Shown: positions 2,471-59,452, counted from the stretch's first letter. The stretch is 61,541 nt of DNA from a virus (IMGVR_UViG_3300018481_000006:1-61541); one strand, 5' to 3'. A program made the numbers and translations. The notes: generated by a model not told the origin, from the letters alone.

Positions 2471-4558
2471 TCACGGGGCAGGCACGGCCTGCGGTTGTTG
2501 CGGTGCCGCTTGCGGCGGCGCGGGGGCTTGCGGCTGTTGCGGTGCTGCGCCGGGAACCGGTGCCGGCCCGCCCATCTGTGGCGGTGGCGGCTGCCCGGGC
2601 GGCACTTCCGGCGGACCCATGTCCGGCGGTCCCGGCGGTTGCTCGCCGGTGGCCTGCATCGGGTTCGGCTTCGGCTCCGGCACCAGCTTGTCGGTGTCCA
2701 TCTGTAAGGTCCGGGCGATGTCCTTGAGCAGGTACCTGCGTCCATCGATGCCCATGATCTGTAGATCGATGGGGTTGGCGGTCTGGGCCAAGAACTCGCG
2801 CTTGTTGTTGGCCTGCTGCTCTCTGGAGATGAGGCCCATCGCGCCCCGGGTATTGACGCGGAAGTCGCCCTTCAGCATCGGGTCCGGGTCGAAGATCATG
2901 TTGTGGATGTACAGACGGCTGACGATGCCGTCGATTGCCATGTCAATGTTGGCAATCGCCTGCTTGATGCCCTTGGAGGCGTTGTCCATGAGCATCGACA
3001 GACCGCTTGCCGTCCGCCCCGCCCCGCCTACAGAGGACGAGCCGTACACGTAGTTGGGGATGCCGGTGATCTCGTCGGCCTGCTTGGAAAACTGCATGTA
3101 GATGCCCATCAACTCGGCGGCGTTGGAGGGCGGCTGGAAGAAATTCACGCCCCGCTGTCCGCCGCCGGTCTTGTCCGAGGTGACCTGCCAGACCTTCCAC
3201 GGGAAGATCGAGGTCACGTCCTCGCCGTCGGGGAGGCGGTCGACCACCACCTCGACCTGCGGCCCCGACGAGATCGCCATGTTGTTCGCCAACGCTCTGG
3301 CTGCCGCGTTACAGACCGCCTGAATGTCGCGCATCAACTCCGGCAGCGCCCCGCCCCAGAAAGCTCCGGGAATGCGCTGCCAGCACGACGTGCTGTACGG
3401 GCGGGCACCCAGCGGGTGCGGGTTGATGACCGCCTTGAGGACGTGCGGCCCGATCCACCACGCATTGATTTCGTAGGGCTTTTCCTTCTCCAGATCGCCC
3501 TTGTGACCCCACTCCTTGAGCATCCTTCCGGGCACCGTGCCCCAGAACTCCAAGACGTCAAGCTCTTCGCTCTGGAAGGTGAGATTCTTGCCCTCCATGT
3601 TGTCGCGCTGGGTGTCTCCAGACAGCCAGTTCTTGTAGCCCTTCGGGTAAGCCTCCAGCGCGGCGGTGATCTGCTTGTTGTTGTAGCCGGGGACGCCGAG
3701 CATGTTGTACAGAGCGGTCGACAGCAGACGATGACGCTCGATCAGGTAGCCGTCGTTCGGCCCGGTGGAACCGGGGGACGGGTAGATGTCGTAGGGGCTG
3801 ACCCGGCTGAAGCTCTGTAACAGATCGTTGACCTGCACCGGCTGGTGGTTCGGTCCCCACGTCATCCTCGGCTTCCGCTTGACCACCGGACCCTTGATGA
3901 TCGCCGTCGGGTAGGTCACGAAGTCGTTGACGAAGTCGAAGAACGCCTCCTCGTAGCCGCCCTCTCTTAGCTGGTCGCGCATCTTGCCTTCCATGCGCGA
4001 CGCCGACTTGTCCGCCCCCTCGCGCAGCATGTACAGAGCGCGGTCGTGAATGTCGGACAGCCGCCGGGAAACGTCCTGCGGCAACAGCATCCCGCCCTCT
4101 TGCACCGCCTTGATCGCCTCCAGACGCACCTGATCGATGATCTGCGACTTCATCTCGGGCGGAAGCTCGGGGTTCTGTGCCGGATCGAGGTCGAACACGT
4201 CGGTGCCGGCAGAGGCCAGCACGTCCTTGATCCAAGACTCTGCCGCCCGACACTTGACGTCGGTGAGCATCATGTAGATGTCGGAGCCGCCGGTCTTGCG
4301 GATGTCGGCTTCCTTGCTCGGGTCGTAGACGCCGCGTCGTTGCCGCTGGCAGGTCAACAGACGCTCTTGGACGCCGGAGTTCTTCTCGTTCTTGGCCCGT
4401 TCCCAACAGATGTTGAGGTGCTTACTGAGTTCGCTCTGGAACAGCGAGTCGGGACCGCTGTGGCCGATGTTCTTGGCGTTGACGGTGATCTCGGTGTCCG
4501 GGGCCGGTCTATCGAGATAGACCACCTCTGCCGACTTGCTGGGCGATTGGTTGATCAT
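2471..4558 (-). CDS. Portal protein
   Basis: ~695 aa immediately downstream of terL; portal-like segments (RVSPYDIYPSP, DEITGIPNYVYG, GRTASGLSMLM); Pro/Gln-rich tail. Start placed at MINQSP (the ORF track start at 4642 overlaps terL). Confidence 0.85.
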   Translation of the reverse strand: MINQSPSKSAEVVYLDRPAPDTEITVNAKNIGHSGPDSLFQSELSKHLNICWERAKNEKNSGVQERLLTCQRQRRGVYDPSKEADIRKTGGSDIYMMLTDVKCRAAESWIKDVLASAGTDVFDLDPAQNPELPPEMKSQIIDQVRLEAIKAVQEGGMLLPQDVSRRLSDIHDRALYMLREGADKSASRMEGKMRDQLREGGYEEAFFDFVNDFVTYPTAIIKGPVVKRKPRMTWGPNHQPVQVNDLLQSFSRVSPYDIYPSPGSTGPNDGYLIERHRLLSTALYNMLGVPGYNNKQITAALEAYPKGYKNWLSGDTQRDNMEGKNLTFQSEELDVLEFWGTVPGRMLKEWGHKGDLEKEKPYEINAWWIGPHVLKAVINPHPLGARPYSTSCWQRIPGAFWGGALPELMRDIQAVCNAAARALANNMAISSGPQVEVVVDRLPDGEDVTSIFPWKVWQVTSDKTGGGQRGVNFFQPPSNAAELMGIYMQFSKQADEITGIPNYVYGSSSVGGAGRTASGLSMLMDNASKGIKQAIANIDMAIDGIVSRLYIHNMIFDPDPMLKGDFRVNTRGAMGLISREQQANNKREFLAQTANPIDLQIMGIDGRRYLLKDIARTLQMDTDKLVPEPKPNPMQATGEQPPGPPDMGPPEVPPGQPPPPQMGGPAPVPGAAPQQPQAPAPPQAAPQQPQAVPAP

Positions 4559-4563
4559 CGTGG

Positions 4564-6054
4564 TCAAGTCCAGCCGGACACGCTCTTTTGCGTTACCGCA
4601 CGCGCGCGGATCGGGTTCATCGCTGCCCTGATCCGCATACACAGGTACTGCAGGCCGTCATGCGGGTGGCTGTACTCGTCCTTCAGCGGACGGTCCTTGT
4701 AGCGTTCGCCAGCCGCCCTGACCCGCTCGTAGCGGTACTTGCCGTTGAAGCCCTTACGAAGCTGGGTGCAGGACGGGTCCAAGAGGAACCCGGGCTGCCC
4801 TTCCGAGAGTTGAGTCAGGAAGTAGGCGACCGCCTCGCGTCTCTGGATGAAGTCGTTGGTGGCGGCAGTCTCGGTGTACAAACCGGCCTCCAAGAGTTCC
4901 TGCACGCAGGTCTTTTCGTCGATCTGTGAACGCACATTGCCTGCCGGGTCACACACCGACTCGATCTTGGTGTACGGGAAGGCGTTGACCAACGCCGGCT
5001 TGACGATGACCCGCGCGAACTGGCGGATGCCCATGTCGTCGGCGACGTATTCGCGAAGAATCTGTAGCTGGCCCTTGGGGGTGATCTGGCCGACCACGCA
5101 GGCCGGGGTCAGCCCGAAATCCCAGCCCAAGAACAGCCGGGAGCCGGTGATGTAGGTGAGCGGCTTCTTCGCCACATGCACAGAGTCGTCCCACTCCGGA
5201 TACACCGGCTTGCCGTCCGCCGTCGTCCCGTACTGGCCGAGCAGGAACACGTTGATCCAGTCCTGATTCTTGCCCGGAATCTGGTTCAGCCAGTACTGGT
5301 AGCCGTTGCTGATGTTCTGTACGTTTTCGGCTGCAGGATTCGGCGCGTAGTCCTCGACGTCGGCCTCATTATCCAAGCGCAACAGTTGTTGACGGTCCTT
5401 GGGTTTCTTGATTAGCGCCCCGGGCTGGCGGAAGAAATGCCAGTCGGCGGGGGTTCTCTCCTCGGCGAAGTGGTAGTACCAGTGATCGTCGTCCGGCGGA
5501 TTGGTGTCGAGGATCACCCCGGTATCGACCGGCCCGCCCCAAATCTTCGGCGGGTATCTGCCGACCCGCTGGGTGAGCATGTCGAAGACCTCTTTCGGCA
5601 CCTCGGAACACTCGTTGATCCACGCCCCGGTCAGTTCCAGCGAGCGCAGCTTGCCGGTGTCCTCGGGAGAGTCGAGGGCGATGAACAGAACCTCCAAATC
5701 AAGGGCGGTCCCGTCGCCGATGTTGGGCAACGATAACCGGGAGGAAATCGGTGAATCCCACTTCATGGGCGCGATGTTGTCCGGGAACCACATCTGCCAC
5801 GTCTTGATGGTGGTCGACTTCAACTCCGGGAAGGTGTTGCGGATCACCGCCCACCTTGAGTTGCGGGTGCCACGGTGCGGCGTCTGCCGCAATGCGTGAT
5901 GCACGATCTCCACGCAGCAACTGGACGACTTGCCGGAGCCGACCGGACCCATCAGTCCCCTGACGAAGCCCCGCGCCTGATGGAACTTGGCCGCTTCCGG
6001 TCCCGGGGGCCGGTAGTCGACCGTCTCCTGCTTTCTGGCGTCGAGCGGCATCAC
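4564..6054 (-). CDS. terL: Terminase large subunit
   Basis: Walker A GPVGSGKS, Walker B-like AWINE, nuclease motifs LGWDFG and SHPHDGLQY. Confidence 0.95.
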   Translation of the reverse strand: MMPLDARKQETVDYRPPGPEAAKFHQARGFVRGLMGPVGSGKSSSCCVEIVHHALRQTPHRGTRNSRWAVIRNTFPELKSTTIKTWQMWFPDNIAPMKWDSPISSRLSLPNIGDGTALDLEVLFIALDSPEDTGKLRSLELTGAWINECSEVPKEVFDMLTQRVGRYPPKIWGGPVDTGVILDTNPPDDDHWYYHFAEERTPADWHFFRQPGALIKKPKDRQQLLRLDNEADVEDYAPNPAAENVQNISNGYQYWLNQIPGKNQDWINVFLLGQYGTTADGKPVYPEWDDSVHVAKKPLTYITGSRLFLGWDFGLTPACVVGQITPKGQLQILREYVADDMGIRQFARVIVKPALVNAFPYTKIESVCDPAGNVRSQIDEKTCVQELLEAGLYTETAATNDFIQRREAVAYFLTQLSEGQPGFLLDPSCTQLRKGFNGKYRYERVRAAGERYKDRPLKDEYSHPHDGLQYLCMRIRAAMNPIRARAVTQKSVSGWT

Positions 6055-6374
6055 TCGGCCTCTATCGCGGGCAGGGCCGGCGGGTCCATCTTGAAGTTGA
6101 AGATGACCGGGGTGAAGTTGATCTCGGTCTTGGCGCTGATCAGGTCGGGCAGGGTCTTCCTCAACAGCAGGGTGGCGGCGTCCAGTTGCGACGGCGTCAT
6201 CTTGATCTTGCCGAAGGCGTGACCTTGGACTCTGTCGATCAGCTTGGAGGTGTCGATGCGCAGCCGACAGACCTCCATGCGCCGCCTCTGTACCTCGGGC
6301 AGCAACTCATTCTGGTCGGTGGGCGTCCGCACCGCAGGCTTGCGCTTGACCGTGAGTGCCCGCTTCGCCGTCAT
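6051..6374 (-). CDS. terS: Terminase small subunit
   Basis: 107 aa overlapping the terL start; MTPSQLDAATLLLRKTLPDL helical motif. Confidence 0.7.
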   Translation of the reverse strand: MTAKRALTVKRKPAVRTPTDQNELLPEVQRRRMEVCRLRIDTSKLIDRVQGHAFGKIKMTPSQLDAATLLLRKTLPDLISAKTEINFTPVIFNFKMDPPALPAIEAE

Positions 6375-6382
6375 GGACGGGA

Positions 6383-6411
6383 AGCATAGGAGGGTGCGCT
6401 CTGTAAGACAA
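6383..6411 (-). promoter_or_regulatory. Candidate sigma70-type promoter for terS (TTGTCT-N17-TATGCT), near-leaderless
   Basis: -35 at 6411-6406, -10 at 6388-6383, ATG 8 nt downstream with no SD; overlapped by inverted repeat GCTCTGTAAG/CTTACAGAGC. Confidence 0.55.
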
Positions 6412-6577
6412 GGGCTTACAGAGCTTTATTACGGACCTTATTACGGACGTGGGCTGGGTGGGGCTGAGAGATTACTCGTGTGGGCAGTCGAGTAATCCGC
6501 TCTGTAACAGAGCAGTGCAGCACCGCTAGGCTGGCGAGCAGCCTAGCGGTGAACACTCCTCCTGTCAACCTACAGAA

Positions 6578-6811
6578 CTACGGTTTTGCAGAGGGCTGGG
6601 TGGAAGGGGAAGGGGTGAACCTCCGGGGGCGGACGTACTTGATGCGGTTGCGCCACTGCTTGACCAAGATCACCCGGACGATGGTGATGGTCGGATTCTG
6701 TGGCTGGTAGCGTGGCACCGGATGCAGCAACTCCCCGTTCGGCCTGAACACGCAATCCTGATGCTTGAAGTGCCGCTGATGGCAGCGGTAGCAGTGCGGC
6801 GGCGGCTTCAC
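6578..6811 (-). CDS. Hypothetical protein (CxxC)
   Basis: 77 aa, overlaps the upstream stop. Confidence 0.45.
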   Translation of the reverse strand: MKPPPHCYRCHQRHFKHQDCVFRPNGELLHPVPRYQPQNPTITIVRVILVKQWRNRIKYVRPRRFTPSPSTQPSAKP

Positions 6812-7191
6812 TTCTTCGCGTCTCGCTTCGCCAGCGCCCTTCTCTCCTTCATGTACTCGCGCTGTCGCTCGTTGTACTTGTCCCGGCTGCCGCGACGTGT
6901 AGCCAACGTCTCGGACGACCTGACCATCTCGGGCTGGCCTTCTGGTGCGGTGACCACGGTCTTGGTTTCCTCGACAGAGCGTGGCTGTCTCGGGCGACCG
7001 GGGGCAGTTTCCTTAAGCCCCCCGGGTACCCTCACCTCGACCTTCGCCTCGGGCGGCAAAACACTCTGTGCCCCAAGCCTTGCCTTCTGTTCTCCCACAG
7101 TCGCTCCCTTATCGGTGAGGTCGACCTTGAAGACGTGAGGCTCGTTGCTCCAGTGCTTCACCTTGCACAGCCTACATAGGGGGGCGTCCAT
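6808..7191 (-). CDS. Hypothetical protein (N-terminal CxxC-x3-H, basic C-terminal helix)
   Basis: GGAGG RBS; CRLCKVKHW; YNERQREYMKERR. Confidence 0.65.
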   Translation of the reverse strand: MDAPLCRLCKVKHWSNEPHVFKVDLTDKGATVGEQKARLGAQSVLPPEAKVEVRVPGGLKETAPGRPRQPRSVEETKTVVTAPEGQPEMVRSSETLATRRGSRDKYNERQREYMKERRALAKRDAKK

Positions 7192-7299
7192 GTTCCTCCG
7201 TAGCTAACGTAGCTAACGTACTCTGTTAGCCACCTGTTAGCTACCGTTTTACTGCGCCGACGTGCGTGTGGGGGACATACGTTGAGGCTCAAGCCCACC

Positions 7300-7317
7300 C
7301 CGGGGGGTACCCCCCGG
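7300..7317. repeat. Perfect 18-bp palindrome CCGGGGGGTACCCCCCGG
   Basis: Seen directly in the non-coding gap between the divergent late and early arms. Confidence 0.85.
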
Positions 7318-7858
7318 TCCATACGCTCGTTCGCGGAGGCGCAGTTCTGTGCGCGTATGTACGCACCCACCCCCACCCATACGTAACGTGCGCAACTCTG
7401 TGCAGCGTAGGTAAGTCCTTGATTCGTAAGGGTAACGTACAGAGGTGCGGCCACATGATGATAGGTGCGCTCTGTACTAGGGGCGGTGACGCGGGACGCT
7501 CTGTAGCAAGGCGAAGCGGTGCGAGAGTTGCGCGAGAGTGCGACGTGTTTCCCCTATGACGGGACGAGTCACGCGTCTACGTACGTGACTCTCGGCACAG
7601 AGCGGTGATCGTCGTATTCGTACGTGGAGTCATAGGGTTACGTACTCGCGGGACAGGAGACGTAGAGCGTACCGGTGACCGGACGCTATCGCGTCCCACT
7701 TGGCGCTTCCACTCTGATCCAGCGTCTCTGGTAGGCCACTTACAGAGTGAGAGCCACGTTTCACCCATAGACGGCTAGCAGGAGAATACTTTCGCGGCGA
7801 GGAGGGCGAAGTAACTCGTTGACCGAGCGAACGATTCCCCTATGAAAACTAGCTCGAT

Positions 7859-7888
7859 TTGACAACAGTCGACGCGTTCCGGCAAAGT
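7859..7888 (+). promoter_or_regulatory. Candidate early promoter (TTGACA; weak -10)
   Basis: Perfect -35 at 7859-7864 just upstream of the hairpin array; -10 (CAAAGT) is poor. Confidence 0.4.
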
Positions 7889-7896
7889 TCATCTCG

Positions 7897-8179
7897 TCGA
7901 CGGGGCGAAACCCCGCCGATTCCGGTCCTCCTGACTCAGCCCTAGCGGCGAGTCATACGAAGGAGGCAGAGCGCGACGTTGTTGCCACGTCGGTCCGGAT
8001 CACCTCTGTAGCGTCTAGCAATCGCTGCAGAGCGCGTAGGGATTCCCAACCCCTATGCGGCACAGAGGCAAAGCCGCCTGCAGCGGACCTCTGTGCAAGG
8101 GACAGTCGTCCCACATGCGTTCCCCCATCCCCGGGAGCGCATGTGAGACGGCTTTCGCCGTCTCCCGCCTGCAAGCGGG
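7897..8179 (+). ncRNA. Putative highly structured leader or ncRNA (about 9 consecutive stem-loops)
   Basis: Back-to-back inverted repeats with G-U pairs that favour the + strand; no credible ORF. Confidence 0.55.
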
Positions 8180-8203
8180 CACCCGCAACTCTGGAGCCAC
8201 CCA

Positions 8204-8419
8204 ATGAACAAGCAACCCATCCTCTCGTCCGTCGTCATGTCGTTCGCCGCCGCCGACTACGGTGTCGACGCAGTGATCGTCGCCACGCCCGTCGGCTTCG
8301 CCGCATCCTTCACCGAGGACGGCGCGACGTTCTCGCTGGGCACGTACGCCGTCTACGACGACGCGTTCGATGCCGTCGACGCGATCATCGGCTTCGACGA
8401 CGACACCTTCGCCCGCTAG
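8204..8419 (+). CDS. Small acidic early protein
   Basis: GGAGCCAC RBS; 71 aa, Asp-rich C-terminus. Confidence 0.7.
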   Translation: MNKQPILSSVVMSFAAADYGVDAVIVATPVGFAASFTEDGATFSLGTYAVYDDAFDAVDAIIGFDDDTFAR

Positions 8420-8477
8420 GGCCAAACCCGCAGCCCCGGGCACTCCCGCCCGGGGCGCACGCAACTCTGGAGCCACG

Positions 8478-8723
8478 ATGGAAAATCTCGCCCGTATCCC
8501 CACGCATCTCTCCGCTGCCCCTACAGACCAAGGCTGGAAGCTCGTTGCTTGGCACACGTCGCTGGACATAGCGGCCTACGTCACCGGCGGCGCGTTCCCC
8601 TGCGAGGTGCTGCACATCAGCGGCATTGCCTACGCTGACGCCTACGCTGTGCAAACCGTCGTCACCCTCTGTGGCATGGGCAAGCGCGAAGCCTGCCGCT
8701 ATATCGCCAAGACCTACCGCTAG
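8478..8723 (+). CDS. Hypothetical early protein
   Basis: GGAGCCAC RBS before MENLARIP. Confidence 0.65.
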   Translation: MENLARIPTHLSAAPTDQGWKLVAWHTSLDIAAYVTGGAFPCEVLHISGIAYADAYAVQTVVTLCGMGKREACRYIAKTYR

Positions 8724-8851
8724 CAGCAGTGCCGTGCCGGTTGCCTCACTGGAGGCATCCGAGACTGCACCGCAGTCCCGCAGGCTCACGCTATGAGCCT
8801 GCCTTCCCCCAAGCTCGCCGTGATAGGCGGGCGCAACAGAGGAGCCACACT

Positions 8852-9253
8852 ATGGAAACCGTCCAGCATGGTCTGCCCGAGATGGCAGCCGACCCGCACT
8901 ACACCGTAGAACCATGCGACTTTGGCAGCGGAGAAATCCACGTCGTCGCCAACTGGCGGACTGTGCGAGGGATGCGAATCGCGCTTGCCATGCAGACGTT
9001 CCCTCCGGGCTGCGAAGCAGAAGCGCAGGAAGCCTGCGACGCGCTGAACGATGCCGCTCTGGAAGCGATCAACGCCGAGCTTGCCAATCTCGGCGAGCAA
9101 CACGCACTGGAGGCACGCTGTGCCTTCGTGGAGTGCCCGCAGTGCGACGGCATTGGCGGCGAGTTCTTCGACGAAGGCGACGGTCGTGGCCCCTGCGGGC
9201 ATGGGTGCTACCGCTGCGCCGGTTCGGGCAAAGTGCCCCGCAACGATCCCTAA
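8852..9253 (+). CDS. Early protein with DnaJ-type CxxCxGxG zinc finger
   Basis: AGGAGCCAC RBS; CPQCDGIG...CYRCAGSG. Confidence 0.7.
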   Translation: METVQHGLPEMAADPHYTVEPCDFGSGEIHVVANWRTVRGMRIALAMQTFPPGCEAEAQEACDALNDAALEAINAELANLGEQHALEARCAFVECPQCDGIGGEFFDEGDGRGPCGHGCYRCAGSGKVPRNDP

Positions 9254-9278
9254 CCCAACCCTACAGAGGAGCAACACT

Positions 9279-9641
9279 ATGGGAATTTTCGGATGGAGTT
9301 TGCCTCCCGGCTGCACTCAAGCGCATATCGACGCTGCCTATGGCACAGAGCAACCTTGCGACGTCTGCGGCTACGACGTCGACGATTGCGTCTGTCCCGA
9401 GTGCCCGACCTGCGGCACGCAAGGCGCTCCCGAGTGCTACGTGACGCATGGCATGGTGCGGTCACAGGCGCAACTCGACGGCTTCGCTGCCCGTGAGATC
9501 GAGCGTGATAGGCAGGAACGCGAAGGGGAGGCGACGTCTAGAGCGGAGGCCGAGTACTGGGCAAGCCCGCAGCGCAAGGTAGAGGAAGCCGAGTTGCAAG
9601 CGTACTGGCGCGACTTGGAGGCGCATCACCGCAACACGTAG
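9279..9641 (+). CDS. Cys-rich early protein
   Basis: AGGAGC RBS; MGIFGWSLPPGC, CDVC...CVCPECPTC. Confidence 0.7.
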   Translation: MGIFGWSLPPGCTQAHIDAAYGTEQPCDVCGYDVDDCVCPECPTCGTQGAPECYVTHGMVRSQAQLDGFAAREIERDRQEREGEATSRAEAEYWASPQRKVEEAELQAYWRDLEAHHRNT

Positions 9642-9698
9642 CGTAGTGCCTGTTGCCGCCCGTGCATTATGCGGATGGCAACGGAGACTGTGCTGCAG

Positions 9699-9727
9699 TT
9701 GACAACATCTGTTGACAGAGGCATCAT
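9699..9727 (+). promoter_or_regulatory. Sigma70-type promoter TTGACA-N17-CATCAT with operator-like palindrome
   Basis: -35 at 9699-9704, -10 at 9722-9727; GACAAC-ATCT-GTTGAC at 9701-9716. Confidence 0.65.
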
Positions 9728-9780
9728 AGTCGTCCGGTTAGCCGCCGGATTCATCCCCCGTTTCACTCTAGGAGCCAACG

Positions 9781-11307
9781 ATGGCACGCATCAAACAGCG
9801 GACCGCTTCCGCTAACACGCAACTCCGTCTGGCGAAGGTTCTGCAGCAAGTGGGAACCGACGCACAGCAACCCAAGCCGATGATCATGGCGCAACCTTGG
9901 GCCACGGTGATCGACGCTGCGCCCCGCGTGGCGGTCCTCAACGGGCTGCGCTCTGTAACGGCTGGCGCTCCGGGCTTCGACTACGGTCCGGTCGGTCTGG
10001 ACCTGCTGCGCTGGATCACGATCAACAAGTACGCGCTGCTGATCGACCCTCTGTCGGTCTGGAACGCCGCTCAACAGAGCAAGGGAGCGCCCGCCGTCAT
10101 CGCCCCGCCGCCGCGTCAGCCGCGACTGCCGCGCTCTGTGCCGCCGAAGGCTGCGCCGACGCTGCCGCATCCCGGCTTTCCCCCTAGCAGCATCCCGGTT
10201 CAGCCCGTCTCCCCTCCTCCCGGCGCAACCGGCGTGACAGGCGACGACGCTGTGCCGGTGATCGCTGTGCCCGAGGCAGGAACCCCGGTCCCGGTCATCG
10301 TGCCGCCCGACGTCATCGCCCCGGGCAAGCCGCTGCCGGCTGAACTGGCGCATCCCGAGTGGAACTGGCAACCCGCTGCCGTCGTGTTCGACGTGCCGGG
10401 GCTGCGTGGCAACGTGGCAGTGTGGCCGATGCAGGGTACCGAGGGAGCGCATCCCCGGGCCTACAAGCTGGACAAGGGCTACCGGTGGCCGGTCGATCAT
10501 CTGCAATGGGCGATCTTCGCTGCCGGTCAGTGCCCCGCCAAGGGCATCTGGAACTGGGGACAACGCGGATCGGGAAAGACCGAGTTTGCCCGTCAGTTCA
10601 GCGCCCGTACCGGACGTCCGTACTTCGGGATCACGTTCACGCAAACGATGGAGCCGAGCGAGTTCATCGGCGACAAGGGAGCGAAGAATGGGAACACCGA
10701 GTTTGAGGCCGGCGCAATGATCCTCGCGCTTGAGGAGCCGATTCCTGCGGTGATCCTGCTAGACGAGATCACCCTTGGGCAGAGCGGGCACATCACTGGC
10801 CCGCTGAACGAGATCGTGCATCCGGCGTGCAGCTACTGCATCCCGAGCAATGGTCGGCGTATCGACTTCAGCGACGGTCACTTTTTCATCGCTGCGGACA
10901 ACACGAACGGGACGGGTGACCCGACGGGCTTGCATCACGGCACGCAGCCGATCAACAGAGCGACGTCGGACCGGTTCAGCTACTTCAACCGGTTCACGTA
11001 CCTCCCGAAGGACGACGAGATCGCCATGCTGATGGACCGCACTGGCTGCGATCTGTCGCTGGCGGGGCGTACGTGGACGATCCTCGACGCTCTGCGCAAG
11101 AAGGTCGACACCGGTCTGTTGAGCGATCCGCCGTCGTCACGTGAGGCGCTGGCGTTCTGTAGCGCGGTGACGTGGGGCTTCGACGAGAAGGATTCGTTCG
11201 AGAAAGCCTTCGTCGCCAAGTACGCCGAGGAGTCGCAGGAGGAAATGCGCGTCACGTTTGTGGCGTGCTTCAAGGCCGAGGGCGATGCCGCCACGGTCAC
11301 GCCGTAA
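9781..11307 (+). CDS. MoxR/CobS/CbbQ-type AAA+ ATPase with Pro-rich N-terminal region
   Basis: Walker A GQRGSGKT, Walker B ILLDE, IAADN sensor, NRATSDRF arginine finger. Confidence 0.9.
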   Translation: MARIKQRTASANTQLRLAKVLQQVGTDAQQPKPMIMAQPWATVIDAAPRVAVLNGLRSVTAGAPGFDYGPVGLDLLRWITINKYALLIDPLSVWNAAQQSKGAPAVIAPPPRQPRLPRSVPPKAAPTLPHPGFPPSSIPVQPVSPPPGATGVTGDDAVPVIAVPEAGTPVPVIVPPDVIAPGKPLPAELAHPEWNWQPAAVVFDVPGLRGNVAVWPMQGTEGAHPRAYKLDKGYRWPVDHLQWAIFAAGQCPAKGIWNWGQRGSGKTEFARQFSARTGRPYFGITFTQTMEPSEFIGDKGAKNGNTEFEAGAMILALEEPIPAVILLDEITLGQSGHITGPLNEIVHPACSYCIPSNGRRIDFSDGHFFIAADNTNGTGDPTGLHHGTQPINRATSDRFSYFNRFTYLPKDDEIAMLMDRTGCDLSLAGRTWTILDALRKKVDTGLLSDPPSSREALAFCSAVTWGFDEKDSFEKAFVAKYAEESQEEMRVTFVACFKAEGDAATVTP

Positions 11308-11355
11308 CGCAACCAATCCCGCCGCCGTGACAGGCGGCTTTACAGAGGAGCCACC

Positions 11356-12531
11356 ATGTCGTACTTCAATCATCCGGTCAAGGTATCGGTGTTCATGGCC
11401 GCTATCCCGGGCCTCGTTGAGCGTCTGTTGCGCCGCGTCCCGGGAGGCGAGGGACGCATCATCGTGCAGGTCATCTTCGTCGGTGACATGGCTTGCGCCG
11501 TGTGGACCGAGAGCGGTGTCGGCGCGTTCCGCATGATCCGGGGCACGATCAAGCTGCCCGCACTCAAGGGCGGCGCGGTGATCGACCGTGCCAAGGCGAA
11601 CCGCTGGATCGGCTATGTGATCCATGAGGTTTGGCACATGGTGTTCACGTCGTCCCCGGTGTGGAGCCACTACGCACAGTACAACCCCGGCATCAAGCGA
11701 GCGATTGCCAACGCTCTGGAGGATGCGCGTATCGAACGCAGCGGGATGGAGCTTGGCTACGCCGAGGGATTCAACGTCGTCGGCAAAGACCTCATGCAGC
11801 ATCTGCTGACGACGGGCGGAATGAACGTCGACCCCAACGATCCGCGTCAGGTGGCATGGGCGTTCGCCGTGGGTTGCCGTGGCTACGGTGTGCAAGGGGA
11901 AGCGCGTCTGTTGTCGCGGCTTGATCCCCGTATCGCCGCTCTGTTGAAGCGCACTAAGGCGAAGGTCGACGCGATTCCGGCGACGATCCTCCCCGCCGAG
12001 GGCACTAAGGCGACGTGCGATCTGGCGACGTGGGTGTACAGCGAGTTGAAGAAGATCGGCAAGAAGGCAGCGGCAGAGGAAGCCGCAGAGGAAGCCGCGA
12101 AGGAAGAGCCGCCGATCTGCGTCAACCCCGCCCCGGTCCCGCAGCGTCACGATGCGAACGACGAGCCTGCACCCGAGGATGTGGATGTGGGCGAGGTGGA
12201 AGCGGGTGACGCTACCGACCAGACGTACGACGACGAGGGTGCGCCGAGCGAGGATGGCGGCGACGGCGACGACGACGGCGGCTTCGGCGGTGACGCTGGC
12301 GACGACGCTGACGACGGCGACGGTGGCGAGGGTGACGGTGGCGAGGGCGAGGGCGACGGCGACGGCGAGGGCGGTGACGCTGGCGACGGCGAGGATCACG
12401 GCGGCACGGCCCGGGGCGGTGGCGATACGGTGAACCCGCTCAAGGTAGGCGACGACGTGGTGTGCCCAGACGGTAGCGCGGGCCGCATCGTTTCGATCAA
12501 CGAGGGCGTCGCTGAAGTCGTCCCTCTGTAA
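11356..12531 (+). CDS. CobT-N-like protein with HExxH metallopeptidase motif and Asp/Gly-rich linker
   Basis: VIHEVWH and NALEDARIE motifs; acidic low-complexity region. Confidence 0.8.
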   Translation: MSYFNHPVKVSVFMAAIPGLVERLLRRVPGGEGRIIVQVIFVGDMACAVWTESGVGAFRMIRGTIKLPALKGGAVIDRAKANRWIGYVIHEVWHMVFTSSPVWSHYAQYNPGIKRAIANALEDARIERSGMELGYAEGFNVVGKDLMQHLLTTGGMNVDPNDPRQVAWAFAVGCRGYGVQGEARLLSRLDPRIAALLKRTKAKVDAIPATILPAEGTKATCDLATWVYSELKKIGKKAAAEEAAEEAAKEEPPICVNPAPVPQRHDANDEPAPEDVDVGEVEAGDATDQTYDDEGAPSEDGGDGDDDGGFGGDAGDDADDGDGGEGDGGEGEGDGDGEGGDAGDGEDHGGTARGGGDTVNPLKVGDDVVCPDGSAGRIVSINEGVAEVVPL

Positions 12532-12555
12532 CAGACGTTCAACTAGGAGCCAAGC

Positions 12556-13740
12556 ATGGCACTCTGGAAACTGGCAGAACTGCACCGTCGCGTCACCCCT
12601 GACCAGACGGGCAACGATGGCAAGCCCGTAGGCGAGCCGCCCGAGGGCGGCACCACCGGCGACGGCGAGGGCGAGAAGGGGCGCAGCACCAGCAAAGACG
12701 GCAAGCTGGACCCCAATGCGTTGGTCAACATGGACAACGTGCCGCACGACGAGATTCACAACCCCGAGCCGACGGTTGCGAATGAGGCGGGCGAGTCGTC
12801 GACGCCCACAGCGCATGACAGGCAGGGAACGATTCCCATTGTCGTGATGGACCCCATCGTCTCGCCCTTCCACAAGGTCGACGCGACGACGGGAGCGGCC
12901 TCTGTAGCGGAGTGGACACAGATGCTGCGCAGTGTCCGCGTCTCCGCTCTGCGTCTCGCCCTGCGCCGCCTGATGCAGCGTAGCGATACGCAAGGCCGTG
13001 TCGGCGGGCTGCGCTCCGGACGTCTGTCGGGGCGCGGCGTGACCCGCTTGCTGATGGGAGCGGAGAACGTGTTTGAGCGCCGCTATAGCCAGCGTGGCGA
13101 GGACGTGGCGGTGACGCTGCTGATCGACCGCTCCGGCAGCATGGCGGGCCAGTGCATAGAGCAAGCGGCGGTGACCGCTCTGTTGATCGGCGAGACGGCT
13201 AGCAACGCTAACGCGAAGCTGGAAGTCGTCGCCTTCGACTCTGTGTACAGCGGCGAAGCCCGGGAGGCGCTGGAGGATACGCTGCGCACCGAGACGCGTA
13301 CCGCTGACCGCTGGGACCACGGACGCAACACTCGCTGGGGCTATGCCGAGGCGAGCGACGTGTCCATCTGCAAGTCGTTCAGCGAACCCATCGGCAAGCT
13401 GCGCCGTCTGTACACGACGATGCGCCGCATGTCGCAGGGTGGTACGAACGACGCCTCTGCGCTCAAGTGGACCGGCGAGCGTCTGGCGAAGCAACCTGCC
13501 AAGCGCAAGATTCTGTTCGTCATCGCCGACGGTATCGGTGACCACGTGAATGTGTTCCGCCACGTGGTGACCGAGATCGAGAAGCAGGGGATCATCGTCA
13601 TCGGTATCGGCATCGGCTGCAACGCGTCGTTCACCGAGCGGTTCACTCACGCCGTCGCCATCAACAAGCCGGACGATCTGTGCGGCAAGGCGTTCGGCAT
13701 GTTGATCGGGACCATCGCCAAGGCGAAGGGTTTCGCGTAG
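12556..13740 (+). CDS. von Willebrand factor A (CobT-C-like) domain protein
   Basis: MIDAS motif LLIDRSGSM, GGTND, LFVIADG; own AGGAGCC RBS. Confidence 0.85.
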   Translation: MALWKLAELHRRVTPDQTGNDGKPVGEPPEGGTTGDGEGEKGRSTSKDGKLDPNALVNMDNVPHDEIHNPEPTVANEAGESSTPTAHDRQGTIPIVVMDPIVSPFHKVDATTGAASVAEWTQMLRSVRVSALRLALRRLMQRSDTQGRVGGLRSGRLSGRGVTRLLMGAENVFERRYSQRGEDVAVTLLIDRSGSMAGQCIEQAAVTALLIGETASNANAKLEVVAFDSVYSGEAREALEDTLRTETRTADRWDHGRNTRWGYAEASDVSICKSFSEPIGKLRRLYTTMRRMSQGGTNDASALKWTGERLAKQPAKRKILFVIADGIGDHVNVFRHVVTEIEKQGIIVIGIGIGCNASFTERFTHAVAINKPDDLCGKAFGMLIGTIAKAKGFA

Positions 13741-13796
13741 CACGTAGCACCGGGGGCGGCGCTCGCCGCTCCCGTATCTCACAGAGGAGCCACACC

Positions 13797-14120
13797 ATGA
13801 GCATCACCGCCGTTCGTATGATCGAAGACTCCATGACCAAGACGCTGTGCGTTCAGTCGCCCTACAACGCGTCGTTCACCGAGGGTGCGCGCAATCTCGG
13901 CGGACGCTGGAACGCGGAACACAAGCAGTGGGCGTTCCCGTTCAACCGCATCGACGAAGTGCGCGCTCTGTGCCGGCAGGTCTACGGCACGTGCGATGGC
14001 AAGCCGGCCATGACCCGCGAGCAACTGAAGGCGCGTCTGGCGCAACTCATCGACGAGGTCGTGAGCGTGCAAGCGCAACTCAACAAGCTCGACGGTACCG
14101 ACGGGGAGGGAGTCGAATGA
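13797..14120 (+). CDS. Small protein with SPY...LGGRWN...KQW (DUF5710/HARP-like) motif
   Basis: AGGAGCCAC RBS; motif recognition. Confidence 0.65.
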   Translation: MSITAVRMIEDSMTKTLCVQSPYNASFTEGARNLGGRWNAEHKQWAFPFNRIDEVRALCRQVYGTCDGKPAMTREQLKARLAQLIDEVVSVQAQLNKLDGTDGEGVE

Positions 14121-14278
14121 ATGCCATCGTCGGTATCTGCGCTCTGTTCTTCATCGTGCTGACCCCGATCATCCTCGTTGCCGGCCCGCTCACCCGCTTG
14201 GGTGTGTCGGGGCCGCAGGCACTCAGCGTTGCAGCCGGCGTCGTGATAGGCGCGTTCATGCTGTGGAGGCTGCGATGA
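14117..14278 (+). CDS. Small two-TM membrane protein
   Basis: 53 aa, hydrophobic, GGGAG RBS, ATGA overlap. Confidence 0.6.
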   Translation: MNAIVGICALFFIVLTPIILVAGPLTRLGVSGPQALSVAAGVVIGAFMLWRLR

Positions 14279-14619
14279 GGGTACTCATAGGCGGCGGCTC
14301 GCAGCGCGGCTTACAGAGGGCGGTCGAAAGCTGCGTCGGCCTTGGCCTTTCGTTCGACTACCTGCCGAGCGACGCCGAGGCGCAGGTCTGGAAGCGCAAG
14401 GCCCGCAACGCTGACGTAGCGATTGCCCGCACCGGTCTGCTCTCGCACAAGGCATGGGTGAACCTGAAGGCGTACTGCCCGAGGGTGATCCCTGTGCCCG
14501 AGAACGGCGAGGCCGCTCTGTTGCGAGTGATACAGAGGCTGGCGCATGAGGGCGAGGCCGCGTGGGTGATGTGGACCCCCACCGAAGGTGCGGAATTTCC
14601 ACTTGACAACGTTTGTTGA
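14275..14619 (+). CDS. DUF2325-like protein
   Basis: VLIGGG...ADVAIARTGLLSH pattern. Confidence 0.6.
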   Translation: MRVLIGGGSQRGLQRAVESCVGLGLSFDYLPSDAEAQVWKRKARNADVAIARTGLLSHKAWVNLKAYCPRVIPVPENGEAALLRVIQRLAHEGEAAWVMWTPTEGAEFPLDNVC

Positions 14620-14632
14620 CAACCGCTACATT
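14603..14632 (+). promoter_or_regulatory. Sigma70-type promoter TTGACA-N18-TACATT with operator-like palindrome
   Basis: GACAAC-GTTT-GTTGAC at 14605-14620. Confidence 0.6.
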
Positions 14633-14662
14633 GCGGTCCGCTGTACCAACCGAGGAGCCACC

Positions 14663-15004: not shown

Positions 15005-15018
15005 CAGAGGAGCCACCC

Positions 15019-15276: not shown

Positions 15277-15284
15277 GAGCCACC

Positions 15285-50044: not shown

Positions 50045-50776
50045 TCAACACACGATTGCCGGGGGCGTCGGGATGCAGTTGCTGTTGTTGGTGTGATCGT
50101 CGCTGGGGCTGTTGATGCGACCCGTGTTGCCGCTGTTCGTGCCGCTGTACGGTCCGGTGTAACTGCCACTGCCGATCACGCCGGAGTTGGTGACGATGAA
50201 GTTGGGCCGCGTCTGTGACGCGATGGCGGATGTGGCGATGCTCCCTATGGTGCCGAAGCCGGTGTTGGCGACGCTCTGTACGGTGCCGAACCCAGCGTTG
50301 GCGATGCCGACGTTGGAACTGAACCCGCCCAGAGCGGTGGTACCCAGCGCGTTGTAGCTGGCGATGGTCGAGTCAGCCGTGTTGCGGCTCTGTTCCACAC
50401 CCAGTTTGTAGCCGAAGTAGCCCTGCACGAGGGAGATCGCCGGACCGGCGAAGATCGCTGCCCACTTCAGCGCCCGTTGCTCTTGGTTCTCGGGGATGTG
50501 CGGAAGCTGCACCGGCACCACGGCGTGCGCGGATGACTCGCTGCCACGGCCCAGCGCCAGTGCTAGGATCGCCATCTGCCGGGAGGCGGGGTCGCCCCGC
50601 TCCGCGATGGCCCCTATCGCGTTGTACCTCGCCTCCTCGGCTCTCGCCTTCGCCACCTCGACGTTCTGTTGCGTGGTGACAGTCAGCCGGTAGCTCTCCA
50701 TCTGCAAAGCGAAGTTGGGGTCCATCGTGGTCTGGCACCCCGTCAGCAGCAGCGTGCTACAGAGCAGTCTCTTCAT
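50045..50776 (-). CDS. Lipoprotein
   Basis: MKRLLCSTLLLTGC lipobox; GGAG RBS. Confidence 0.75.
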   Translation of the reverse strand: MKRLLCSTLLLTGCQTTMDPNFALQMESYRLTVTTQQNVEVAKARAEEARYNAIGAIAERGDPASRQMAILALALGRGSESSAHAVVPVQLPHIPENQEQRALKWAAIFAGPAISLVQGYFGYKLGVEQSRNTADSTIASYNALGTTALGGFSSNVGIANAGFGTVQSVANTGFGTIGSIATSAIASQTRPNFIVTNSGVIGSGSYTGPYSGTNSGNTGRINSPSDDHTNNSNCIPTPPAIVC

Positions 50777-52038
50777 ATCTCCACCAGTCCGGGTTGGCGT
50801 TGGCCCTTGAGGGCAACCAAGTCCGCGTACACGTAGACGATGTTGTGCGTCTGGTGCCACACCGACGGGTACTCGTTGCGCATCGACGCACTCTGGAAAC
50901 GTCCCCTGATTCCCGGCACGTACTGTTGCTGCTGACGGCGGGTGTAGTACCAGAACGAGTTGGAGTTCCAGAACGAGGCATGGGTCGGGTCTTGAAAGGC
51001 TCCGCGTCCGTCTGTAGACGGGGTGGCGGTGAGCATCCAGCCTCCGGGCACCAGCACTCTGTACGCCTCGTTCATCAACCCCACCGTGCAGAACGGCGGC
51101 TGATGGGTGCAGCTTGAGTCGCGGCAGTGCGGCACATGCTCTAGGAAGTCGTAGGCCCGTATGCAGCCGACCGAGTTATCGGCAAACGGCCACGGTTGGC
51201 GCAGGTCTACCCCGGTCTTCAGGTCAGCGGCGACGAAGCCCTCCGGGCAACCGATGCCGCCGCCAAGATCGAGCTTCAGGTACTCGTTGCGACGGCACCA
51301 CTCGGCGACCAACTGGTGGGTGTAGCGATCACGTAGCTCGGCCTGCTTGCTCTGTATCTCGGCGTTGCGCTTGAGCCACGTGTTCTCCCCGTTGGACTGA
51401 AGTCTGTAGAGGTACAGAGCCTCCGGGATGTGCGCGAAACGCGCCCCGGCGAGGTAGGTCCGCATCACCAGATCGTGGTCGTCACAGATCGGCAACGCCG
51501 CGTCGTGTCCGCCCACCGCTCTGTAGGTGTCGGCGTTCCACACCCGGACGTGGTTGGGGGCGTAGAAGATTTCCCGCAGCGAGGACGCGTCCGGCTCAAA
51601 GCTGCGGTTGGCTTGGTGAACGTCGTCGCCGACTCTGTAGCTGTAGTGTTCCCAGCCCCACACCTTGTCGTACAACTCGTAGGTGCCGTCCGCCCTGAAG
51701 TTGGCAGCATCGGAGTAGATGAAGTCCGCTCCGTCATCCGCCGCCTTCGCCACCTTCTCCAGAGCGTTCGGCATCAGCTTGTCGTCGTGGTCGAGTTCGA
51801 CCAGCAGGTCACCCCTGCACTCGCCGCAGGCGAACTTCTTCAGCGCGCCGACGCCCTCTGTGCCGGTCGGTGCGTGCAGCACGCGGATGCGCGTGTCCTG
51901 CATCTCGGGAGGCAGCGTGGCCCCGTTGTTGATGACCACTACCCACTCCCAGTCGCGCACGCTCTGGGCGAGCAGCGAACGCTGTGCTTCGGCCAGATAC
52001 TTGGTGTCGTGGGTCGGCGTGAAGATGCTGAACTTCAT
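50773..52038 (-). CDS. GT2 glycosyltransferase fused to a class I SAM methyltransferase-like domain
   Basis: FSIFTPTH, ELDHDD (DxD), DDHDL; LDLGGG, DFLEH, EAYRVLVPGG, QDPTH. Confidence 0.85.
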   Translation of the reverse strand: MKFSIFTPTHDTKYLAEAQRSLLAQSVRDWEWVVVINNGATLPPEMQDTRIRVLHAPTGTEGVGALKKFACGECRGDLLVELDHDDKLMPNALEKVAKAADDGADFIYSDAANFRADGTYELYDKVWGWEHYSYRVGDDVHQANRSFEPDASSLREIFYAPNHVRVWNADTYRAVGGHDAALPICDDHDLVMRTYLAGARFAHIPEALYLYRLQSNGENTWLKRNAEIQSKQAELRDRYTHQLVAEWCRRNEYLKLDLGGGIGCPEGFVAADLKTGVDLRQPWPFADNSVGCIRAYDFLEHVPHCRDSSCTHQPPFCTVGLMNEAYRVLVPGGWMLTATPSTDGRGAFQDPTHASFWNSNSFWYYTRRQQQQYVPGIRGRFQSASMRNEYPSVWHQTHNIVYVYADLVALKGQRQPGLVEI

Positions 52039-58729: not shown

Positions 58730-59430
58730 GCACCCTCCATCTGGATCGACGCCGCGTTGGGCAGCGCGCCCTTGCTGTGCAAGTCGGGCGAGAAGGCAAT
58801 GTCCTTGCGCCCCTTCATGCCCAGCACCGCCATGAAGGACTGCAGGTAGGCTGCCGCAAGCTGCGCGTTCTGTACGAACTGGGCGTCCTTGCTGTAGCAG
58901 CGGAACAGAACGTAGTTCAGCAGGGGGTCGATGAACACGTCGGGCAGCCCCAGCTTGTCAGTGGGCGCGGTGACGTCGGGCGGGGTCTTGGAGTAGACGA
59001 TCTCGACCTTCGTCTCGCCGAACTTCGGGTCCGGCTTGAGGGCCGGCGGCGACACGTAGAACGTGGTCGGATCGCGGTTATCGAACACGTAGCTGCGCGT
59101 TACCGCAGCGGGCTTCGCGCCGTGCCAGTTGGGGTCGGCGCTGTCCAGCACCTCGCGGTCGACCATGCGAATCGCACGCGAGCCGGCGCTGGTGATGGAG
59201 GGGATGTTCCTGACCACGTCCAGCAGGCGCAGCCCGCCGTCGGGAATCTTCTGCTTGGTGCCGGCGACCAGCGTGATCTGTGCGTTCTCGACGCACGCGT
59301 CCGGTCGCACCAGCACGATGACGCGCTGGCCGTCGGTGATCCACTGGAACGCCTCGGCATCCAGCCAGCGCACCGCAGCCTCGTCCTGCAGGACACGGCG
59401 AGCGCGAGCGATGATGTCGCTTGCCAACAT
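58726..59430 (-). CDS. Head-tail adaptor (DUF6682-like)
   Basis: IIARARRVLQD..VRW...RPDA...LLNYVLFRCYSKD. Confidence 0.75.
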   Translation of the reverse strand: MLASDIIARARRVLQDEAAVRWLDAEAFQWITDGQRVIVLVRPDACVENAQITLVAGTKQKIPDGGLRLLDVVRNIPSITSAGSRAIRMVDREVLDSADPNWHGAKPAAVTRSYVFDNRDPTTFYVSPPALKPDPKFGETKVEIVYSKTPPDVTAPTDKLGLPDVFIDPLLNYVLFRCYSKDAQFVQNAQLAAAYLQSFMAVLGMKGRKDIAFSPDLHSKGALPNAASIQMEGA

Positions 59431-59452
59431 GATCGGCTCCTCTGTAGTCGCA

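Follow-up and report, generated by a model that had tools for sequence, protein, structure and literature searches.

Genes and features of the window

The viral record IMGVR_UViG_3300018481_000006, analysed here over its whole length of 61,541 bp (the window), is complete and carries direct terminal repeats; its guanine-plus-cytosine (GC) content is 63.8%. The subject of this work is the pentamer TCTGT (ACAGA on the other strand), which is scattered over the whole record and of which CTCTGTA/TACAGAG would be the extended form used by this phage. An earlier reading of the sequence (hereafter the original prediction) had drawn attention to the heptamer as a dispersed site under selection and read by a protein. 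The sequence is circularly permuted, because one gene is split across both ends of the record, and its gene set is that of a podovirus-like phage; in addition to the genes collected in Table 1, it comprises genes for a tail fibre, a tail spike, an SF2 helicase, Erf, a RecE-like exonuclease, HNH proteins, a Tad2-like protein and an HTH_3 protein. About 45 open reading frames (ORFs), together with the giant protein in four pieces, were compared with Pfam and/or PHROGs. These family scans and the other searches of the window gave no DNA polymerase, primase, RNA polymerase, DNA methyltransferase or integrase, and no tRNA.

Table 1. Positions of the genes and motif arrangements of the window that are discussed in the text
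Feature	Position	Strand	Remarks
SU10-type portal	2471-4642	-	family scans
Large terminase	4564-6054	-	family scans
Divergent non-coding control region	6375-8203	.	between the terminase operon (-) and the early genes (+)
Perfect inverted pair GCTCTGTAAG-N7-CTTACAGAGC	6398-6424	.	10-nt arms, 100% complementary; directly upstream of gene 6051-6374 (-)
Near-palindrome GCTCTGTAACAGAGC	6499-6513	.	two core words head to head, one base between them
AAA_5 (CobS/MoxR-like) ATPase	9781-11307	+	first gene of a three-gene block, 9781-13740
CobT_C/VWA protein	12556-13740	+	last gene of the AAA_5 / 391-aa / CobT-VWA block
HTH_17 protein (excisionase-type winged helix)	17751-17984	+	possible monomeric DNA binder
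ParB_N-domain protein	20268-21275	-	ParB_N domain match
Giant polyvalent protein, 3212 aa	29484-39122	-	ART-PolyVal, DUF7178, LPD38; 55 core words vs 8.4 expected
Two direct CTCTGTA copies nine bases apart	36906-36921	+	inside the giant gene
Giant protein, N-terminal ~420 residues	37863-39122	-	Gly/Ala-rich, helical; in 7/7 enriched and 0/4 non-enriched complete genomes
Major capsid gene	59510-61099	-	1 core word vs 0.9 expected

A pentamer selected at the DNA level

The heptamer CTCTGTA/TACAGAG has 71 exact sites in the window (41 on the + strand and 30 on the - strand), among which are all 13 positions quoted in the original prediction, against a zero-order expectation of 4.3. In 100 shuffles that preserve dinucleotides the mean count was 2.64 (standard deviation 1.51, maximum 7) and none of the 100 reached 71. 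A second null model was given by synonymous-codon shuffling, which keeps each protein and the codon usage of each gene; genes were called with a codon-usage model, and two doubtful + strand ORFs opposite terL (4967-5155 and 5501-5899) were excluded from the shuffled set. Over 300 such shuffles the heptamer was found 17.7 times on average (standard deviation 1.7, maximum 22), but 14 of these are unshuffled sites that lie outside called genes or straddle their limits, so that within coding sequence 57 observed copies stand against ~4 expected. The original prediction had named this comparison as the one that could refute it, and the excess survives it.

The excess arises at the level of the pentamer, because the 6-mers contained in the heptamer already account for its frequency: a maximal-order Markov model predicts from them 65 copies, to be compared with the 71 observed. 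The pentamer itself is found 318 times (181 TCTGT on the + strand, 137 on the - strand), that is, ~5.2 times per kb, against 105.5 in the codon shuffles (standard deviation 6.7; z score 34.7, about 32-35) and 139 in the maximal-order Markov model. In fact, when all 4-, 5- and 6-mers are ranked against the codon-shuffled null, ACAGA/TCTGT is the most extreme except for its own extensions, and the words that rank after it are its sub-words. The claim of a strong excess of CTCTGTA/TACAGAG is therefore upheld, but the unit on which selection acts is the pentamer and not the heptamer.

All five positions of the core are required, since a single change at any of them brings the counts to background or below it. 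The flanking bases are less strictly defined: immediately before TCTGT a C is favoured and then a G, immediately after it an A is favoured and C is avoided, and these two preferences are soft and independent of each other, while bases beyond the first on either side carry no information. A profile of this kind, with five required positions and independent flanks, looks like the matrix of a DNA-binding protein. The strength of the preference is best appreciated from the synonymous opportunities, namely the places where the encoded protein would allow the word: 133 of 377 (35%) are used for TCTGT and 143 of 553 (26%) for ACAGA, about 30% overall, against 2.4-3.7% for the composition-matched control pentamers TCTGA, TGTCT, TCAGT, ACTGT, TGTGT and TCTCT and 4-6% for the controls ACACA and AGACA.

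With respect to gene strand, 133 pentamer sites are sense, 140 are antisense and 45 are intergenic or partial, and the corresponding figures for the heptamer are 25, 32 and 14; all three frames are used on each strand, the preferred ones (NNT-CTG-TNN and NNA-CAG-ANN) being those compatible with the codons. The word is thus under selection at the level of DNA and is not the effect of a peptide or of codon usage, as had been argued from its presence on both strands and in several frames.

The spacing of the pentamers is near Poisson (coefficient of variation 1.02), with no preferred distance between pairs, and their density is maintained along the whole genome; the genome-wide dispersal claimed for the motif is therefore real, and the proposed analysis of spacing and strand gave neither a strand polarity nor a preferred pair spacing. 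Pooling seven enriched genomes, pairs 12-21 bp apart are ~1.7 times as frequent as by chance (125 against about 71-75). The density is 8.5 per kb in non-coding and 4.9 per kb in coding DNA. Among the long genes only the capsid gene is without enrichment; 16 of the 17 others have a 3-9 fold excess, and the tail-fibre genes are the next lowest at about 3-fold (2.9 fold in the tail-fibre gene 42813-46100).

The densest 2-kb bin of the genome, 6001-8000, contains 20 core sites and overlaps the divergent control region, where the perfect inverted pair and the near-palindrome of Table 1 are found. Moreover, (T)ACAGAGGAGCC is present at about 8 gene starts and TACAGAGGAGCC stands just ahead of the start codon in about 8 early genes. 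The clustering in regulatory DNA that had been reported is thus correct as regards the higher non-coding density, the inverted pair, the palindrome and the gene starts, but 273 of the 318 sites lie within genes. As a separate observation, the early genes (8204-17141, +) share a near-invariant initiation cassette of the form ...(ACAGA/ACTCT/ACTA)GGAGCCAC(N0-3)ATG, whose element AGGAGCCAC is present in 13 copies where 0.8 are expected.

The word in related phages and in bacterial genomes

Clade A is made up of ten metagenomic contigs that share 59-90% identity with the window in the portal or the helicase; all of them are enriched in the core, with observed/expected ratios of 2.6-4.7. The flanks differ among them: CTCTGTA is the form of the two closest contigs (L002 and L131), TTCTGTA or GTTCTGT that of L003, and TCTGTTG that of L006 and L007. 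A search for further relatives of the replication module gave one IMG/VR contig and a 3-kb metagenome piece. In nine aligned relatives 25-56% of the window sites are conserved, to be compared with 25-50% for any pentamer, each relative has 5-27 private sites of its own, and the non-motif states found at orthologous positions are scattered (TCTGC, TCTGG, GCTGT, CCTGC, TCGGT). Sites turn over while density is kept, which indicates selection on density and not on positions.

More distant relatives were collected by a portal profile search of IMG/VR, which gave at least 569 confirmed relatives, 80 of which were kept for comparison; the enrichment comparison excluded loci shorter than 4 kb, and the portal tree, with 64 rows, was restricted to loci of at least 7 kb whose portal match covered 450 residues or more. 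A second enriched group (clade B) emerged, including six near-complete genomes (G706-G710 and G715; 50-62 kb, GC 49-61%) with core ratios of 2.1-3.2 and, in the four tested by codon shuffling, z scores of 9.8-24. In these genomes AACAGA is found 111-176 times against 15-27 expected and the top heptamers are CAACAGA, AACAGAT, AACAGAC and GAACAGA, so that the flanks of clade B are nearly constant, AACAGA[T/C], and differ from the TACAGAG of the window. Four other near-complete genomes, G711-G714, are without enrichment (ACAGA z scores from -1.3 to 2.7, and no word above a z score of 10), and the excess is also absent in the distant cultured relatives RHph_TM3_14A (ratio 0.66) and phiM6 (ratio 1.02), the latter with its own polymerase and primase/helicase by annotation. 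Below this level the non-enriched genomes have words of their own: in G713 CTCGAG is found 104 times against 31 and CTCGAGC 48 times against 8.6, and in G711 heptamers containing CTCAG are mildly over-represented.

In a quick maximum-likelihood portal tree all 7 rows of clade A are enriched and all 22 rows of clade B have a ratio of at least 1.5, but the two clades are separated by a clade of 21 rows and by several small lineages, all without enrichment; the trait was therefore gained or lost more than once. The enriched phages span GC contents of 49-67% and have from 0 to 199 CCWGG sites, and among all the genomes compared the number of these sites goes from 0 to 204, a difference in restriction-site avoidance that implies different hosts. 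As judged from these comparisons, the trait follows the phage lineage and not the host, and the flank preferences likewise follow the lineage, drifting between lineages. Strand counts are near-equal in five of the seven enriched genomes (clade B and the window), with a modest excess in the window and in G708 (118/75); no strand switch was seen along any of them, and none of the seven has a transcription bias. The test in related phages that had been suggested therefore turns out in favour of the word, which belongs to clades A and B and is not peculiar to the window genome.

In G707 and the other clade-B genomes there are genes for a tyrosine integrase, a Sak-type annealing protein, DUF1376, a short DnaB_C/AAA_25 helicase and DUF3846, as well as an AAA_5 gene paired with a DUF7192 gene; these phages are probably temperate, in contrast to the integrase-less window.

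The comparison with hosts was made on sampled proteobacterial genomes, in sets that include some flagged as unpublished (G212, G037; G444, G701, G546) or as limited (G653). Among 401 Alphaproteobacteria the highest heptamer density is 0.09 per kb (G354, 261 copies in 3.0 Mb) and among 301 genomes of the Gammaproteobacteria class it is 0.23 per kb, against 1.15 in the phage, so that none of these 702 genomes reaches one fifth of the phage density; many large alphaproteobacterial genomes are even below the reversed-word control (56 against 311, 13 against 230, 14 against 320). The pentamer behaves in the same way: in five samples of 80 kb of high-GC alphaproteobacterial DNA its density is 0.34-1.06 per kb, its observed/expected ratio 0.34-0.83 and its rank 601st-895th of 1024, against 5.17 per kb, a ratio of 4.28 and the first rank in the phage, which makes it 5-15 times rarer in these host-like genomes. 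The check in candidate hosts thus gave a word that is rare there. A search for clusters of three heptamers within 30 nt in the genomes of 185,579 species gave at least 120 stretches, with no taxon prominent among the 80 listed. One bacterial genome, that of Symbiopectobacterium purcellii (G004, which holds L029), has 1776 copies of CTCTGTA in 5.7 Mb against 196 of the reversed-word control; this is probably a repeated element, and the bacterium belongs to a group different from the hosts of the nearest cultured relatives.

Other searches placed the phage only loosely. No DNA near-identical to the window was found among 50,697 phage records and no prophage relative among GTDB genomes; tblastn searches with the tail spike and the tail fibre gave scattered domain matches and no host signal; and contigs of one soil and one leaf-litter metagenome matched the window at small shares (0.12 and 0.06), with no RNA data set among the matches listed. 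That the host belongs to the Alphaproteobacteria is a guess from the relatives.

Restriction-site avoidance in the window is extreme. CCWGG, for which the codon shuffles predict 228 copies, is missing altogether, as are GGCGCC, CCGCGG, GAGCTC, CTCGAG, GGATCC, AAGCTT, GCATGC, AGATCT, GTGCAC and CAGCTG, CGGCCG is present in a single copy, and the asymmetric words CTCAG (15 against 84) and ACGGA (33 against 118) are depleted too. CCWGG and GAGCTC are at zero in every clade-A contig and almost missing from Rhizobium phage RHph_TM3_14A, while the counts of GGCGCC, CCGCGG and CGGCCG differ among the relatives. The window also has, at 17905-18315 (-), a protein with a domain like Tad2 (Thoeris anti-defence 2; Pfam E 1.1e-17), whose gene has one of DUF968/HNH-like type as its neighbour and partly coincides with the HTH_17 ORF at the 3' end of the latter. 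A GT2 glycosyltransferase is encoded amid the tail genes (50773-52038, -); the nearest protein-atlas clusters are mostly viral and most of their members also have Methyltransf_11, a domain that Pfam does not report for the window protein.

What may read the word, and how it compares with known systems

We favour, with a rough probability of 0.4, the reading that TCTGT/ACAGA is a dispersed docking or identity word of low information content on duplex DNA, for a putative factor supplied by the phage. In this lineage a weak and additive selection, acting at synonymous and non-coding positions, would hold the word at ~5 copies per kb with both strands counted, and the putative factor, delivered with the virion or made early, would engage the whole phage chromosome rather than one locus, either coating or organising it or marking it as phage DNA. 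We infer that a protein reads the word, that it is encoded by the phage and that the benefit grows with the number of sites. Recognition looks like that of duplex DNA, judging from the near-equality of sense and antisense sites, and a selection on density that is free of strand, frame and position would be the signature of a trans-acting reader that works along the whole chromosome. Each site brings only a weak benefit: in the capsid gene, which is highly expressed, the excess is missing when the other long genes are enriched, and this points to a selection balanced against translational cost.

A factor supplied by the phage is favoured because the flanks of clade B remain constant across very different GC contents and host genomes lack the word, because the flanks differ between close relatives in clade A, and because the control region holds paired sites. 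A more specific form of this reading, which we consider doubtful, is that of a Chi-like identity code owned by the virus, in which the factor would separate phage DNA (about 5 sites per kb) from host DNA (0.3-1 per kb), so that phage DNA would be spared, coated or preferentially processed; its reader would perhaps be part of the ejected polyvalent protein, and its specificity for the flanks would drift from one phage lineage to another. Of the original prediction, then, the selection at the DNA level and the dispersal of a site that a protein may read have stood, and its ParB readers and stoperator-like repression have not.

Candidate readers were sought by comparing the seven enriched (the window, G706-G710 and G715) with the four non-enriched complete genomes (G711-G714). 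Two features follow the enrichment. One is the N-terminal segment of the giant protein (Table 1), which matches clade B in 6/6 genomes at E values from 1e-15 to 3e-23 and is also seen at the start of other 'PLxRFG' polyvalent proteins; the other is the AAA_5 ATPase, in 7/7 enriched and 0/4 non-enriched complete genomes. The giant protein as such had been proposed as a reader, and the distribution of its N-terminus agrees with the proposal, but the grounds are weak: the segment is a reader candidate, or only a marker of shared ancestry, and its AlphaFold model is unusable (mean pLDDT, the predicted local distance difference test, of 37). The giant protein is itself chimeric, since residues 1-420 match only the giants of ACAGA-enriched genomes and residues from about 2200 to 3212, with LPD38, match only those of G711-G714 (up to 36% over 1011 residues, in G713).

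The two proteins put forward as ParB-like are not supported as readers. The ParB_N domain of the product of 20268-21275 is confirmed, yet it is missing from 10/10 near-complete relatives, 6 of them enriched, and this protein was rejected as a reader common to the clades; the product of 27072-27893 has no Pfam match, only one to PHROG 5931, of unknown function. The proposed helix-turn-helix proteins are a different case, as HTH_17 is present in 11/11 genomes, enriched or not, and is uninformative either way. Other candidates were discarded because they have no counterpart in clade B (the helicase, Erf, HTH_3, the PHROG-5931 protein, both HNH proteins and the small early proteins) or because, although shared with clade B, they are also in the non-enriched G713 (the RecE-like exonuclease, DUF968 and a 77-aa protein). 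Lifestyle does not correlate with enrichment either, Phage_integrase being carried by five of the seven enriched and two of the four non-enriched genomes; the window has no match to Phage_integrase, and serine recombinases were not searched for.

Several observations weigh against a docking word read by a phage factor. No phasing of the sites at 10-11 bp, the helical repeat, is detectable in the seven pooled genomes, where only the 3-bp codon periodicity is seen. The N-terminal segment of the giant protein has the look of a module for ejection or for the membrane rather than of a protein that binds DNA. The AAA_5 ATPase is also in a non-enriched fragment (G720), and its partner differs, being CobT_C/VWA in the window and DUF7192 in clade B. 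At the level of BLAST and hidden Markov models, these two are the only features common to the window and clade B and missing from G711-G714; it follows that a homologous phage reader is below detection or nonexistent, which leaves room for a conserved host reader. Moreover, clades A and B are only two independent contrasts, resting on a quick version of the tree with branch supports of 84-99, and no cultured phage is closely related: in the collection of 50,697 phage records the portal finds its best match, at 34%, in Rhizobium phages.

A host reader is in fact the essence of the best rival to the docking word, although we regard it as rather unlikely: TCTGT would be the preferred extended start site of the host primase DnaG, namely a 5'-CTG-3' template with T on its flanks, and phages without a primase would raise its density to have their displaced single strands primed frequently. 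According to Larson et al. 2010 (PMC2978363), d(CTG) is the site on which DnaG of E. coli, Yersinia and Pseudomonas prefers to prime, and the primers begin with pppAG. This class-specific initiation trinucleotide, CTG, forms the middle of the word, and a pppAG start would correspond to the AG(A) of ACAGA. A Toprim primase, in a 508-602 aa Toprim+DnaB_C protein, is found in 0/7 enriched and 3/4 non-enriched complete genomes, and also in a non-enriched fragment (G719) but in none of the five enriched fragments. A family-A DNA polymerase is absent from 11/11 genomes, and therefore all of them rely on the host polymerase. However, G713, 95% complete, has neither a detected primase nor the enrichment, and all four primase carriers belong to one clade and represent one evolutionary event. 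CTG alone is very common, while the variants NCTGN are not enriched (GCTGT 0.9x, TCTGG 1.4x, TCTGC 1.1x), and the strict requirement for both outer T's fits priming poorly, as does the lack of strand polarity in all enriched genomes. The behaviour of the flanks, constant in clade B despite differences in GC and restriction sites and varied among close clade-A relatives, also favours a reader borne by the phage over a host enzyme that evolves slowly.

Two further explanations seem improbable, each to the same degree. According to the first, the word is a modification target and a phage enzyme, possibly within the ejected polyvalent protein, modifies a base in TCTGT/ACAGA; protection or marking would then increase with the number of sites. 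Polyvalent proteins of related architecture do bear DNA methylase and SNF2 domains (Pfam lists of P0003-P0007), and one domain of the giant protein of the window is that of an ADP-ribosyltransferase (ART-PolyVal, 36 bits). Short T-rich motifs in DNA are the targets of ADP-ribosyltransferases of the DarT type. Against this explanation, the family scans found no gene for a DNA methyltransferase, a glycosylase or base modification in the window, the ART region is not common to clade B, except weakly G706, and a complete avoidance of restriction sites (CCWGG and the ten 6-bp palindromes listed above) would not be needed by DNA that is broadly protected. Enrichment is not usual for the targets of modification enzymes.

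According to the second, a phage regulator uses the word as its half-site, with the intragenic copies acting as stoperator-like roadblocks or as decoys. The control region with its perfect inverted pairs and palindrome, the highest density in non-coding DNA, the presence of helix-turn-helix proteins and the position of TACAGAGGAGCC ahead of early start codons are on its side; on the other side are the intragenic location of most sites, their lack of orientation with respect to transcription, the lack of a fixed pair spacing and the absence of an integrase from the window. Known sets of stoperators are ten times smaller than the set of sites described here. The stoperator-like repression that had been suggested is thus unlikely, with about 300 sites, and a reading as control sites could cover the subset in the control region but not the genome-wide excess.

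Less probable is a neutral by-product, either of a context-dependent mutation or repair bias or of the purging of neighbouring restriction sites. Some depleted words are indeed one step from parts of the motif (ACGGA 33 against 118, CGGAG 110 against 207, CTCAG 15 against 84), and turnover at constant density would also be the outcome of a mutational equilibrium. The excess of about 213 sites is however greater than the deficit of any neighbouring word (about 85 for ACGGA), and the alternative states differ in position and type, so that no single mutational process converges on the pentamer. G712 and G714 have an equally strong avoidance (CCWGG 1 and 2) and yet ACAGA z scores of 1.9 and -1.3, and the exemption of the capsid gene points to a balance of selection.

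Slightly less probable still is the mimicry of a host word, that is, of a Chi-like site acting on RecBCD/AddAB or of a signal for uptake or orientation taken over from the host genome. In size (5-8 nt), density (about 1 per 200-400 bp per orientation) and turnover the sites resemble Chi and uptake sequences, and in a circularly permuted genome both orientations would be useful and a lack of polarity could be tolerated. But every Chi or uptake word known to us is over-represented in its host, whereas none of the 401 Alphaproteobacteria or 301 Gammaproteobacteria-class genomes approaches the phage density and the pentamer is under-represented in 5/5 sampled high-GC alphaproteobacterial genomes. 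The core is enriched in phages of GC 49-67%, therefore in different hosts, which is a further point against mimicry. This explanation is largely refuted, although the phage's own host lineage may lie outside the sampled genomes. An artefact of assembly or sequencing has a negligible probability and is refuted by the enrichment of independent contigs from many metagenome assemblies (10 clade-A and more than 20 clade-B loci) together with the lack of it in related contigs obtained likewise.

The interest of a docking word, or of any reader, lies in the fact that a virus lineage pays a measurable cost in codon usage for a word of its own, using about a third of the synonymous opportunities, and that a single phage family has gained or lost the trait two or more times, although it persists across hosts of differing GC. 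With a phage factor as reader, this would be a new way in which a virus marks or handles its DNA and leaves the bases unmodified; with host DnaG as reader, no genome tuned for a primase would have been seen before. In either case the word is a simple signature by which this phage group can be recognised in metagenomes, a concrete target for assays and a caution for recoding and synthetic-phage work, because synonymous changes are not neutral in these phages.

The original prediction knew of no described system with this site, and a search of the full-text literature, supplements lying outside it, likewise gave no description of the TCTGT word or of a comparable genome-wide word owned by a phage. 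The classic genome-wide words shaped by protein machines, such as Chi, the uptake sequences and the FtsK-orienting polar sequences (KOPS), are all cellular. Chi sites are similar in being short (5-8 nt), asymmetric and dense, in the precedence of density over position and in site turnover; they differ because Chi is a word of the host genome, over-represented there and co-oriented with replication, whereas the phage word is rare in hosts and non-polar and its TCTGT core is constant across phages of very different GC. The DNA uptake sequence (DUS) of Neisseria and the uptake signal sequence (USS) of Haemophilus share with it a frequency of ~1 per kb (in its extended form), the presence on both strands and in all frames and a cost in codon usage, but they are located in the genome of the cell and read by the competence machinery, while TCTGT is viral and missing from cells.

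Among the sites of phages, the stoperators of Cluster A mycobacteriophages are also asymmetric, scattered within genes and control regions and read by a phage protein. A stoperator is 13-14 bp long, and a genome has about 25-35 of them, all following the direction of transcription; the protein that binds them is the immunity repressor of a temperate phage, whereas the core of the window is of 5 bp, in 318 copies, without orientation bias and in a genome without a detected integrase. Primase sites, in particular the d(CTG) of DnaG, are alike in their pentamer size and central CTG, and the enriched genomes lack a phage primase; the pentamers of T7 gp4 are primase recognition sites. Primase sites are not known to us to be enriched genome-wide; moreover one primase-less relative is not enriched, and there is no strand polarity.

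The sites of chromosome-organising proteins, namely the Noc-binding sites (NBS), the SlmA-binding sites (SBS), the parS sites of ParB and the heptamer boxes of P1 parS, offer the likeness of tens of dispersed sites for a protein that binds DNA chromosome-wide, and the heptamer has the size of a typical half-site of this class. These sites are however longer, mostly palindromic and far fewer, and ParB_N is found in 0/10 relatives; the ParB/parS site in particular is a palindrome of about 16 bp in few copies, to be set against an asymmetric 5-mer in 318 copies. The nearest parallel in a related phage is that of RHph_TM3_14A (MN988472.1, L001, portal 34% identical), which has an over-represented heptamer as well, AGGTAAC, with 49 copies against 5.2 in 50 kb; this is nevertheless the arm of an 18-bp hairpin, GTTACCT-N4-AGGTAAC, present in about 45 dispersed copies, many of them just upstream of start codons, while the window word has no partner arm. 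The TCTGT word is thus akin in kind to Chi, to the uptake sequences and to the stoperators, yet it fails the defining tests of each of them, and there is a real chance that its mechanism is new.

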